DNA from: Candidatus Pacearchaeota archaeon
Lineage (GTDB): Archaea; Nanobdellota; Nanobdellia; Pacearchaeales; GW2011-AR1
NCBI GenBank assembly: GCA_038869755.1
Contig: JAWCQN010000005.1
Span: forward strand, 1-53,643
DNA length: 53,643 nucleotides
Direction of reading: 5' to 3'
Shown: positions 6,001-9,000 of the stretch, piece by piece
Numbering within the stretch: the first letter of the stretch is position 1
Layout of the letters: each line of letters begins with the position of its first letter
Made by a program: the position numbers

Positions 6001-9000
6001 AAAAAGAGGAGTGTTTTCAAATAATAAACTATTTGAACTAAAATGAGGAAGATAATTTATAATAATTTTGATAATAAATTTATATTTGGTATATATGTCA
6101 ATTAGATATTATTTTGATGATGGGCTGCAGAGAAAAGCAGAAGAAATATCTAAAAAGTTATTTCCTCACATAAATATAGAGAGAGTTAAATGTTTTAGGA
6201 GTGTAGGGAGTAGTTCGAGTAACACTATTGCAAGATGCCATACTATTGGAAAATTAATGCAGTTAACCATAGGTGTTAAAGCTCATTATGGTATAGAATT
6301 TATATCTGAAAATTTTGATAAACTATCTGATGAAGAAAAAACTAAGGTTATTATTCATGAATTAATGCATATTCCAAAGAGTTTTGGTGGAGGGTTTAAA
6401 CATCATGATTATGTATGCGACAAAAATATAAATATGTTTTATAATAAACTGAACAGTTTAAATATTAGGAATAATGAAAACAAAAAACTTAAGGATTTTT
6501 TCTGGCAGTGAGAGTATTGTGGTGAAAAATGTTAGAGAAGTTGAAGGAATTAATATCTTTAGAGGATTGATGTTTTCATCGAAGGACAATTCAAATGCTT
6601 TATTATTCAATATTAAATCCGGTTTACATAGTCTTTTTGTTTTTTATGATTTTTTGGTTTTATGGCTTGATTATAAAAATAAGATTGTTGATTTTAGAAT
6701 TGTTAAACCATTTAGATTTTATATAAATACAGATAAGGAATATTCTAAAATACTGGAAGTTCCAATTTCCCGACGATATTCAGGGATTGCTAATTTTATC
6801 GTCGGGGAAAAGTTTAAAAACCGGTTTATCTTATTATGATTAACAATTAATAAAAGGAGGTTTATATGGGAACTGTTCTTATAAAAAATGCCGTCAAGAG
6901 AAAGCCAGGTTACCTTTACTATGTTGATGGAAAGGGAAATGTCTGTGAAGCAAAAATGGCCCGTGGCGGAAAAAAGAAAGCTAAAAAGAAAAAAAGATAA
7001 ATTCTAATATTTTTATTTTTCCTATTTCTATTTTTAATTTATTCGTTAATGTTATAAACCAATGATTTTACCTTATATGTACTTATGAAAATAAAGATTA
7101 TGTGCTTAATATAAGGTTATCTTAAACAGATTTATCTTAAAAAGTTAAGATTGAAATAAAATGATACTTGGAATTGAATCAACAGCTCACACTTTTGGAA
7201 TCGGTATAGTCCATAATGAAAAAATATTGGCAAATGTTAAAGACTCGTATACCACTGAGAAAGGAGGGATTATTCCTGTTGATGCTGCAAAACATCATAA
7301 GGAAGTTGCAGAAAAAATTTTAAGCAAAGCTTTGGTTGATTCTGGTATCGGTTTGGAAGATATAGATGCAATTGCACTCTCCCAAGGGCCCGGATTATCT
7401 CCATGCCTGTTAGCTGGAAAAGATTTTGCCAAGAAAATAGCTAAAGAACTAAATGTTCCTCTGGTTCCTGTTAATCATTGCATAGCACATCAGGAGATTG
7501 GAAGGATTACTGGTGCAAAGGATGCTGTAATGTTGTATGCTTCTGGAGCCAATACACAGATAATTGCTTATGCTTCCGGAAAATATAGGGTTTTCGGAGA
7601 AACTTTGGATTTGGGAGTTGGGAATTTTATTGATACCTTTGCCCGCCATATAGGTTTGGGGTTTCCCGGAGGCCCTAAAATAGCAAAAATTGTTGAAGAA
7701 GCTAAAAAGCCTAAATATATAGAATTACCTTATAGTATTAAAGGGATGGATGTAAGTTTTTCCGGTTTGCAGACTAAATTAAGTCATCTTTATAATTCAA
7801 AAAAGCATTCAATTGAGGATTTATCTTATAGCATGCAGGAAAGTGTTTTTTCTATGTTAATAGAGGCAAGTGAAAGAGCTCTTGCACATACTGGAAAAAA
7901 AGAGTTGGTTTTGGCAGGAGGAGTTGCATGTAATAAAAGACTTCAGGAAATGGCAAGAATTATGTGTGAAGAGAGAAATTGTAAAATGTTTGTTCCTGAA
8001 AATTCACTTCTTGTTGATAATGGAGCCATGATCGCTTTTACCGGGGAAATTATGTATAAGTCAGGAATTTTGATAAAGCCCGGAACTAAGGAGTTTGATG
8101 AGTTAGACATAAAGCCGAAGCAGAGGACTGATGAAGTTGAAGTCAAGTGGAGATAAGATTTATAAACCCATTTTATAATTAGATTATAACCTATGAAGTA
8201 AATCTTCATTTAAAATAGATTACGGAGGTCCGCATGGATTTCTATTCAATTGTTGAAAAGGCGAGAAAAACAGGAAAAATTGAAAAAGGAACTAATGAAG
8301 TAACCAAAGCTATTGAGAGAGGTACTGCCAAGCTGGTTGTAGCTGCCAAAGATGTAGATCCGAAGGAGATTACTCATCATCTTAGCATTTTATGTAAGGA
8401 GAAAGGCATAAAGTTCGGAGAGGTTGATAGCAAACAAAAGCTTGGAATCTCGGCAGGAATAAAAGTAGCATGTAGTTCAATAGCTATAATTCAGCCCGGT
8501 GATGCCGAGAAAGATGTAAGCAATTTAAAGTAATCTGTTTATACAAAATATTAAAATGAAGGAAAGTATAGGAAAAGCGGCAAGAGAATTAACTAATGGA
8601 AATAAGATGTTAGATAATGGAAGAGAGTCGTGCCCTTTCTATTATCCGGATTTGAGATGTAATGCAGGGATTTTTTCAAATTGCATCCATATTGAAGGAG
8701 AAGAGTATCATTCATGTATGATTTATCAAAATTCTGTTAATAATAGGGTATAGAATGGCTCAGCAAAAACCACAGCAACAGCAGAAAAAAGAAAAATTAA
8801 GTATTAGTGAGGAAGCTGTTCCGGCTGTTGTTGAGGCGATAATGGGGAGAACAGGTTTCAGGGGAGAGGTTACTCAGGTTAGGGTTAAAATATTGGGTGG
8901 AAGAAATTCTGGAAGAACAATGAGAAGAAATGTTAAAGGGCCGGTAAGAGTTAATGATATTTTAATGTTGAGAGAGACTGAAATTGAAGCAAGAAGAATA

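Follow-up and report, generated by a model that had tools for sequence, protein, structure and literature searches.

The window analysed here comprises 53,643 nucleotides of a Candidatus Pacearchaeota genome (contig JAWCQN010000005.1 of assembly GCA_038869755.1; this genome is designated G000) and carries kae1 on the plus strand at positions 7161..8156. The gene is intact and encodes Kae1, the threonylcarbamoyl (TC) transferase subunit of KEOPS, with a length of 331 aa. The protein reaches 429.7 bits with TIGR03722 (cut-off 375) and covers model positions 1-323, which assigns it as an archaeal Kae1, as the first-pass annotation had done. Among solved structures, Kae1 of Pyrococcus abyssi is nearest to it (E 2e-117). 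The gene is separate from bud32 (contig C1, 104552-105181, minus strand) and from mtaB (contig C2, 19611-20672, plus strand).

The motifs of Kae1, all encoded on the plus strand, are intact: the metal-binding HxxxH with His106 and His110 (7473..7490), the conserved active-site loop YxSGxNTQ of residues 126-133 (7536..7559), the nucleotide-binding GGVxxN with Asn258 (7917..7934; an excerpt of PMC3814370 gives the role of this residue) and DNGAMI with the metal ligand Asp286 (8016..8033). The metal ligands and nucleotide contacts His106, His110, Asp286, Asp158 and Asn258 are present in G000 and invariant across 51 aligned relatives; the site equivalent to P. abyssi Glu176 varies among relatives and is Ala in G000. 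An AlphaFold monomer (mean pLDDT 95.6) was used for helix boundaries only. It places helix alpha1 (residues 41-58, 7281..7334, plus strand) at residues 39-61 and helix alpha2 (residues 78-97, 7392..7451, plus strand) at residues 80-97. According to a part of PMC8565320, alpha1 forms part of the Pcc1-binding surface in solved KEOPS structures. The Pcc1-binding helix alpha2 is remodelled in G000: it has Leu84 and Lys87, at positions where relatives with Pcc1 carry Arg/Lys and a small residue. Prediction of a Kae1 homodimer (two copies, 51-row alignment) gave a score of 0.00 against a mark of 0.42 and was counted for neither side.

Bud32 of G000 scores 200.4 bits (cut-off 125) and has the kinase motifs and the C-terminal tail, which an excerpt of PMC8565320 describes as required for tRNA modification and not for Kae1 binding. 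Catalytic motifs and tail were kept in all 31 sequences examined (RGRY in 30, RRRY in one). The catalytic residues of Kae1 were kept equally in 43 sequences from genomes with Sua5 and 48 from genomes lacking it, and no Kae1 column tracked Sua5 within the order or overall (lowest p about 0.002 among about 330 columns). One column that seemed to do so in other orders (best p 5e-5) turned out to be an alignment gap near the C-terminus. The dN/dS values of Kae1 were 0.04-0.11 in five pairs of Sua5-less genomes and 0.05-0.07 in two pairs with Sua5, with dS near saturation. The active site of Kae1, the Bud32 tail and purifying selection are thus the same without Sua5. Insertions near residue 212 of Kae1 occur in genomes of both kinds; the three that were read as possible inteins or added domains are unrelated low-complexity loops without intein ends.

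Pfam searches of G000 recovered no Sua5/TsaC, Cgi121 or Pcc1, a Pfam scan of 760 of its 782 called ORFs was equally negative, and an unfiltered six-frame search with a Sua5/TsaC profile built from relatives gave a best E of 0.07. The assembly (0.63 Mb, 20 contigs, 93% complete) also lacks orthologues of EF-2, EF-1alpha and TrpRS, as named from sequence motifs, and its ThrRS is truncated at the end of a contig. Because the genome is fragmented, incomplete and short of core genes, G000 alone is unable to prove absence, and the relatives carry this point. In the order of G000 (Pacearchaeota type, 151 genomes), Kae1 and Bud32 are retained equally tightly, each in 145 genomes, one of the Kae1 matches (G095) having only E 6e-6. 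PF01300 passed its cut-off in 30 genomes, two copies being broken and one match being a NodU-like carbamoyltransferase, so the Sua5/TsaC count was set at 29. About four in five members of the order (122 of 151) therefore lack the protein. Intact copies elsewhere score E 1e-37 or better. The genome G033, a single contig of 710,724 nt with a 21-nt terminal repeat that is probably closed, has Kae1, Bud32 and a full-length MtaB; the unfiltered lineage profile for Sua5/TsaC gave a best E of 0.027 in it and 2.7e-65 in the control G105. The earlier claim that Sua5/TsaC is missing while Kae1 is kept thus holds well beyond G000. In a class sample of 201 genomes, 195 had Kae1 and 98 had Sua5/TsaC (missing in 103).

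The loss of pcc1 in this order is real and well supported by an empty gene slot, a sensitive profile and the remodelled helix. At 29 of 30 loci in sister orders pcc1 adjoins rpl37ae/rpoP, whereas in G000, G033 and G105 rpoP directly abuts the prefoldin gene. Pcc1 exceeded the Pfam cut-off in none of the 151 genomes, and an unfiltered six-frame search of G000 with a profile from relatives gave a best E of 0.33. A class-specific profile was positive in 81 of 201 genomes, sister orders among them, and in none of the 43 from the order of G000. The Pcc1-binding helix of Kae1 is remodelled in most Pcc1-less lineages: in other orders a small residue stands at position 87 in 25 of 26 genomes with Pcc1 and in 3 of 18 without, and in the order of G000 in 0 of 47. 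The association rests on three independent pairs on strongly supported branches, which were never discordant (sign test p 0.25). Three Pcc1-negative genomes (G201, G261, G270) retain the old helix. Of four Pfam-negative genomes that have this helix form and were predicted to hide a Pcc1, one (G300) proved to do so. Cgi121 was searched with the Pfam model only, as the class had no positives for a lineage profile; it passed the cut-off in 0 of 151 genomes of the order and 0 of 131 of the class, with a model that also misses the control Sulfolobus acidocaldarius. Of the two-subunit KEOPS proposed in the first-pass annotation, the loss of Pcc1 therefore stands, while Cgi121 is undetected by this model.

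The presence of e-MtaB in G000 was confirmed as well, like that of Bud32 (338.1 bits with TIGR01578, cut-off 314.7), and both three-cysteine clusters are there. The protein has 354 aa, its match ends at position 352 of the 421 of the model, and it is without the C-terminal TRAM domain. The same domain is missing from MtaB of four other members of the genus, and no separate TRAM was found with a profile from relatives, either in G000 or beside the genes of five relatives. Decay to a pseudogene was considered and rejected: of 15 pairs, 10 allowed an estimate of dN/dS, which was 0.14-0.23, and the 120 best database matches are all short forms without TRAM in the Pfam listing. As TRAM is lacking, t6A is a putative substrate of this MtaB. 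Retention of MtaB, part of the original argument, holds for five of seven sampled members of the genus (none with Sua5), all TRAM-less, but only for 46 of 151 genomes across the order, the 30 best-scoring copies being full length. Outside the family of G000, 17 of the order's 19 Sua5-less genomes have an MtaB above the cut-off, G033 included, and t6A is therefore probably still made. Two archaeal e-MtaB enzymes act on t6A/hn6A tRNA and form no ms2A (PMC10702137), and Streptomyces MiaB is said to act on unmodified A in work cited in a passage of that paper. Within the family, 89 of 103 Sua5-less genomes are also without MtaB. Among its Tyw1-bearing members MtaB occurs in 7 of 14 with Sua5 versus 14 of 50 without (p 0.2), a trend to co-loss. 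On the tRNA side, 11 of 12 ANN tRNAs of G000 have U36-A37-A38; in the remaining one the position of the intron boundary is uncertain. A38 also occurs in 13 of 21 non-ANN tRNA calls, some of them spurious, and is weak as t6A evidence.

Two ectosymbionts without Sua5/TsaC, Nanoarchaeum equitans and Nanobdella aerobiophila, have been described (Pichard-Kostuch et al. 2023, PMC10321239); for N. equitans, KEOPS was stated to be kept and supply of TC-AMP or of the enzyme by the host was proposed. Like N. equitans, G000 is a reduced DPANN genome with Kae1 and without Sua5/TsaC. Unlike that report, which covered two cultured species and flagged two lineages as uncertain, the gap seen here extends over 122 of 151 genomes of the order and about half of the class, MtaB is often retained, and Pcc1 is deleted. 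With the KEOPS of P. abyssi and Methanocaldococcus jannaschii (Pcc1/Pcc2-Kae1-Bud32-Cgi121) G000 shares the catalytic motifs and C-tail of Bud32; it differs in the lack of Pcc1 and of a detectable Cgi121 and in the remodelled alpha2. Kae1-family enzymes also work without Pcc1 in mitochondrial Qri7/OSGEPL1 and bacterial TsaD-TsaB, where the alpha1/alpha2 surface makes dimer contacts according to parts of PMC8565320 and PMC5001605. In contrast to Qri7/TsaD, Kae1 of G000 is of the archaeal type (above the TIGR03722 cut-off, below that of the TsaD model), and Bud32 is kept alongside it, which the minimal enzyme Qri7 does not need. The MtaB protein resembles e-MtaB/CDKAL1 in passing the TIGR01578 cut-off and in both cysteine sets, but lacks their C-terminal TRAM.

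We favour, at a probability of roughly 0.45, the view that TC-AMP from the host feeds a Pcc1-free Kae1-Bud32 pair that still makes t6A. Archaea of this order have tiny genomes and are likely to be host-dependent. Kae1 and Bud32 would be the remnant of KEOPS after deletion of Pcc1, with the changed alpha2 helix perhaps freeing Kae1 from the need for Pcc1. If t6A is still made, the pair likely moves threonylcarbamoyl onto A37 of ANN-reading tRNAs. TC-AMP, an AMP derivative described as diffusible in an excerpt of PMC8565320, has a half-life of 3.5 min at 37 °C (PMC6004061) and might pass a host-symbiont cytoplasmic bridge such as that described in a Nanobdellota archaeon (PMC11420986). Were it to arrive from the host, the symbiont could do without a Sua5/TsaC of its own. 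The same gap exists in N. equitans at 90 °C, and the authors deem TC-AMP transport unlikely there (PMC10321239); host TC-AMP thus needs a variant, for instance enzyme import, before it can serve as a general explanation. Counted against the host-fed pair are the co-loss of MtaB in the family, the TRAM-less MtaB of G000, the essential t6A-independent role of KEOPS in Saccharolobus, the small number of independent pairs behind the association of helix and Pcc1 together with the three Pcc1-negative genomes that retain the old helix, and the finding, in parts of PMC3814370 and PMC5001605, that activity of P. abyssi Kae1-Bud32 alone is undetectable and Pcc1 "absolutely required".

Kae1-Bud32 may instead be kept for an essential t6A-independent job, Sua5-less cells living without t6A and MtaB having another target or being lost; we regard this as doubtful. 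An excerpt of PMC10989989 reports that KEOPS genes of Saccharolobus are undeletable even with a bacterial t6A system and proposes such a role in DNA repair or recombination. The view would fit the loss of Pcc1, needed for t6A in vitro, the TRAM-less MtaB of the genus and the 91 of 151 genomes that have neither Sua5 nor MtaB, in nearly all of which Kae1 is retained. It fits poorly with the retention of all metal ligands, nucleotide contacts and the Bud32 tail, with the MtaB of other families, and with the 29 genomes that keep or have regained Sua5/TsaC beside the same Pcc1-less Kae1, which suggests that such a Kae1 can use TC-AMP. The earlier statement that t6A is still made remains plausible, from the conservation of Kae1 and Bud32 and the full-length MtaB of other families, which are better support than the TRAM-less MtaB of G000. 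The first-pass annotation had also suggested an unrecognised TC-AMP synthase, and this gained no positive support. Either a protein unrelated to Sua5/TsaC or a secondary function of a universal enzyme (such as threonyl-tRNA synthetase or Kae1-Bud32) would explain the intact downstream machinery and the spread of the gap over about half of the class, including a hyperthermophile for which import of TC-AMP is doubted, and a shared backup would permit many losses of Sua5. No YrdC-, NodU- or HypF-like domain occurs, however, among the 760 ORFs searched. The 40 genes present in G000 and G033 and not found in the Sua5-bearing G105 belong to Fe-S, sugar, membrane and regulatory categories and include no adenylating candidate, in a three-genome comparison that is blind to a moonlighting universal enzyme. 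Nor did a candidate emerge when 42 proteins were scanned with NCBIfam and the sequences of 26 unannotated core proteins were read, and no Kae1 column shifts with loss of Sua5. We consider an own synthase rather unlikely.

Import of the host Sua5/TsaC protein, or salvage of threonylcarbamoyl from host t6A nucleotides by Kae1, appears very improbable. Stable carriers would presumably serve at any temperature, enzyme uptake has been proposed for N. equitans (PMC10321239), and bridges could pass proteins (PMC11420986), but the literature passages searched hold no precedent for salvage, and no active-site change in Kae1 tracks Sua5 loss. That Sua5/TsaC is present and was missed, in incomplete assemblies or as a divergent gene, has a chance close to nil. 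The core genes missing from G000 speak for it; it is largely refuted for the order by G033, by the high scores of intact copies, and by Kae1 and Bud32 each being absent from only 6 of 151 genomes.

KEOPS without Sua5 was already known from N. equitans, and the absence of Pcc1 in Pacearchaeota from a supplement. What is new is the scale of the Sua5/TsaC gap and the natural occurrence of Kae1-Bud32 without Pcc1. The pair is inactive in Pyrococcus assays, and this order supplies natural examples with two or three candidate helix positions. With Sua5/TsaC gone and its partner enzyme unaltered, cells must exchange a reactive intermediate or an enzyme, or draw on another source, unless KEOPS performs a second essential task. 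To our knowledge, Sua5/TsaC is listed among about 60 universal proteins, and the exceptions named are obligate symbionts only. Half of the class might make t6A through a Pcc1-free Kae1-Bud32 switched on by the remodelled helix, with a source free of the Sua5/TsaC fold (new synthase, moonlighting universal enzyme, or salvage). We hold this to be unlikely; if true, the universal set would lose one protein, and the purpose of Pcc1 would be revealed.

A 56-row tree requires at least 12 switches between presence and absence of Sua5/TsaC, and the distances among TsaC sequences agree in part with those among Kae1 sequences (Mantel rho 0.24, p 0.011, 17 genomes). TsaC may have been ancestral and lost repeatedly, and other DPANN archaea may at times have been the source of a regained Sua5; the named proteins closely related to one long Sua5 include some from Woesearchaeota and Micrarchaeota. 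The 586-aa PF01300 match of G094 is the NodU-like carbamoyltransferase mentioned above; since G000 is without such a gene, a NodU-like protein is ruled out as a general supplier. Several weak PF01300 matches sit in frames of 500-610 aa, of which that of G094 was the one examined.

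The kae1 gene (window 7161–8156, + strand) is one intact reading frame of 331 amino acids. Its product passed the archaeal Kae1 model with 429.7 bits (cut-off 375) and has its nearest solved structure in P. abyssi Kae1 (E 2e-117), while the nearest named records, 76–84% identical, carry Nanoarchaeia, Pacearchaeota or Woesearchaeota labels. Ribosomal protein genes (L7Ae, S28e, L24e) are downstream neighbours, bud32 is not adjacent, and a bacterial-type gyrase B/A pair (window 9742–14302) also lies immediately downstream. Bud32 (210 aa, contig C1) and e-MtaB (354 aa, contig C2) scored over their cut-offs elsewhere in the genome, G000 (627,282 bases in 20 contigs, 93% complete). 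One core gene of G000 passed the "pacearchaeosortase" model, and we place the genome in the order Pacearchaeales. A GroEL/GroES-type pair adjoining DnaK/DnaJ/GrpE occurs together with a thermosome (extracted loci L086:9838–11734 and L111:1055–2647). In about 15 genomes of the order Kae1 has in-frame insertions of roughly 50–100 unrelated residues near residue 212 (L200 of G106, L201 of G071, L202 of G129); Bud32 matches were split in a similar way near model position 120, and MtaB matches near 196–215.

Sua5/TsaC was not found in G000 by Pfam (controls detected 14/14), by a 27-relative profile run unfiltered in six frames (best E 0.07), or among 760 of the 782 called ORFs, a scan that left out 22 small ORFs and six frames containing N. 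For G000 alone this proves little, because orthologues of EF-2, EF-1alpha and TrpRS were also not found and ThrRS is interrupted by a contig end; the names EF-2, EF-1alpha and TrpRS, like IscS and RpoP, were assigned from motifs and context. The ThrRS pieces lie at the ends of C5 (window 52988–53641, −) and C16 (L107:2–295, −), which suggests that the two contigs follow one another with a gap between them.

The order provides the stronger test. Using one set of 151 genomes (at least 85% complete) for all three families, we found Kae1 in 145 (one weakly), Bud32 in 145, and PF01300 over the cut-off in 30. One PF01300 match, a NodU-like protein of G094, was rejected. The 29 genomes left comprise six that carry long Sua5, 21 whose only copy is an intact short TsaC, and two in which the gene is broken. 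Weak Sua5 matches of carbamoyltransferase type (500–610 aa) occurred in about a dozen further genomes of the order, a NodU/CmcH-like identity being read in L030 of G094; such enzymes can be mistaken for Sua5 in counts. The Sua5-less relative G033, a single contig of 710,724 nt with a 21-nt terminal repeat, is probably closed and is rated 91% complete. It carries Kae1, Bud32 and full MtaB, and Sua5/TsaC was not found in it (best E 0.027, compared to 2.7e-65 in the Sua5-bearing control G105). Counted by profile match alone, 195 of 201 class genomes have Kae1 and 98 have Sua5/TsaC, the latter split into 6/43 in the order of G000 and 92/158 in other orders. The gap in the order is real, as the first-pass annotation had claimed, and an artefact is highly improbable. 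In the class family f28, nine genomes (G175, G185, G192 and six others; three of them single-contig) have a divergent Kae1 scoring under the TIGR03722 level of other genomes, and both Sua5/TsaC and Pcc1 are missing.

Across 17 genomes, TsaC distances agreed partially with those of Kae1 (Mantel rho 0.24, p 0.011), and some sequences were misplaced. A Kae1 tree of 56 rows required 12 or more changes in Sua5 presence. Among the named proteins close to the long Sua5 of G105 are some from Pacearchaeota, Woesearchaeota and Micrarchaeota. We infer that Sua5/TsaC was inherited, lost repeatedly and occasionally regained. Long Sua5 adjoins short TsaC in G126 (C22:61878–63352), a rare co-occurrence, and tsaC directly adjoins kae1 in G083 (C3:69170–70703).

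Pcc1 was not found by Pfam in any of the 151 order genomes, and 78/201 class genomes matched at E 0.05. A class profile built from 30 proteins, which detected every withheld member with an E value of at most 2.7e-11, gave no match in G000, G033 or G105, and matched 81/201 class genomes with 0/43 in the order. At sister-order pcc1 loci, rpl37ae and rpoP are adjacent in 29/30 and a prefoldin beta gene in 24/30; in G000, G033 and G105 rpoP directly adjoins the prefoldin gene. Thus, pcc1 is deleted in the order, and a published supplement counts 0 Pcc1 for Pacearchaeota, 0 for Nanoarchaeota and 11 for Woesearchaeota (PMC9889334). Of the proposed two-subunit KEOPS, the Pcc1 part therefore stands. 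Cgi121 may be missing as well: 0/151 order and 0/131 class genomes exceeded the cut-off of a model that detects only 3/4 archaeal controls, and the class offered no member from which to build a better profile.

Helices alpha1 and alpha2 of Kae1 are described as the Pcc1-binding surface; in Qri7 and TsaD the dimer contacts are made through this surface (PMC8565320). In a non-random sample of other orders (28 best TIGR03722 scorers plus 20 hand-picked Pfam-negative genomes from different families, 44 of 48 used), position 87 was small (A/G/S/N) in 25/26 Pcc1-bearing versus 3/18 Pcc1-less genomes, and position 84 was R/K in 25/26 versus 4/18. The order itself had a small residue 87 in 0/47. When the two helices were left out of the tree, nine changes in Pcc1 presence were counted, and only three independent pairs lay on strongly supported branches, none of them discordant (p 0.25); G201, G261 and G270 are exceptions to the pattern. 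Judged from these alignments, Kae1 is changed where Pcc1 binds in most Pcc1-less lineages. A natural Pcc1-free Kae1-Bud32 is unexpected, since the P. abyssi pair is reported to have no detectable activity and Pcc1 to be "absolutely required" (PMC3814370, PMC5001605).

t6A synthesis probably continues. Catalytic residues were kept equally in 43 Sua5-bearing and 48 Sua5-less Kae1 sequences (one of the latter partial), and Kae1 dN/dS was 0.04–0.11 in five Sua5-less and 0.05–0.07 in two Sua5-bearing pairs, rough values with dS near saturation. Bud32 motifs and tail were kept in 31/31 sequences (the 30 best-scoring and G000), the tail being described as needed for tRNA modification and not for Kae1 binding (PMC8565320). 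MtaB was over the cut-off in 17/19 Sua5-less genomes outside the family of G000, and two archaeal e-MtaB enzymes reportedly made no ms2A in vitro (PMC10702137). Counted against continued synthesis are the scarcity of MtaB (46/151 order genomes; missing from 89/103 Sua5-less family members), the lack of TRAM in MtaB of G000, a Streptomyces MiaB that, according to work cited in PMC10702137, uses unmodified A and a Saccharolobus KEOPS described as essential apart from t6A (PMC10989989). That Kae1-Bud32 is kept for a t6A-independent role is rather unlikely. Much of the MtaB loss in the family follows loss of Fe-S enzymes, because 45/46 MtaB-bearing genomes have Tyw1; among 64 Tyw1-bearing family members MtaB occurred in 7/14 with and 14/50 without Sua5 (p 0.2). 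The TRAM-less e-MtaB gene of G000 (C2:19611–20672, +; L080:4611–5672) lies upstream of U32 peptidase and ferredoxin genes. TRAM is also missing in four other genus members and G145 (carriers of the short form: G081, G107, G130, G145, G150). This short subfamily (about 340–365 aa) is sizeable and under purifying selection; for all of its best 120 database matches UPF0004 and radical SAM are the sole domains listed, and the named matches are mostly from Pacearchaeota, Woesearchaeota or Nanoarchaeota.

As to the source of TC-AMP, we favour, at a probability of roughly 45%, supply from a putative host cell to the Kae1-Bud32 pair. Outside supply is chemically possible, because TC-AMP has a reported half-life of 3.5 min at 37 °C (PMC6004061) and diffuses between enzymes (PMC8565320), and an archaeon of this phylum (Nanobdellota) is described as joined to its host by a cytoplasmic bridge (PMC11420986). 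Sua5/TsaC is reported to be missing from N. equitans and N. aerobiophila, N. equitans retaining KEOPS, and host supply was proposed (PMC10321239); the occurrence of the gap in N. equitans at 90 °C argues against TC-AMP import as the full explanation. A source of the cell's own, which the first-pass annotation had sought in an unrecognised synthase, is slightly less likely than a t6A-independent role. YrdC-, NodU- or HypF-like domains were not found among the 760 scanned ORFs of G000, no replacement emerged among the scanned and read unannotated core proteins, and no Kae1 column tracks Sua5 loss. Comparison with G105 left 40 genes that G000 and G033 have in common and that it did not show, among them MtaB, Tyw1, an Elp3-like enzyme, ferredoxin, and sugar and membrane genes; these yielded no candidate either, so that the replacement enzyme is left without positive support. 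Such searches would miss a universal enzyme that forms TC-AMP as a secondary activity. Enzyme import or salvage is improbable. Compared to the Sua5 gap of N. equitans and N. aerobiophila, published in miniature, the order shows the same gap at scale. The best-ranked literature matches (the top 12–20 of the larger result sets) contained no paper that describes the order-wide gap, MtaB retention or the helix change, parts of which Supplementary Figure 1 of PMC10321239 (DPANN distribution) and Figure 1A of PMC10989989 may show. New are the scale of the gap and the existence in nature of a Kae1-Bud32 pair that has no Pcc1 and whose helix is remodelled; both make two open questions directly testable.

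Fe-S enzymes present in G000 include MtaB, Tyw1, the Elp3-like enzyme and U32 peptidase; the cysteine desulfurase and scaffold of G033 and G105 were not found in its assembly (gap or loss). AUA may be read without agmatidine, since tRNA-Ile with anticodon UAU is present in G000 (C4:28563–28693, minus), G033 and G105, and the Pfam scan of G000 gave no TiaS match. Many G000 tRNAs have introns of 37–206 nt, e.g., tRNA-Tyr (window 1093–1278), and that of tRNA-Ser GCT (C11:17183–17473) contains three tandem copies of a unit of about 63 nt.
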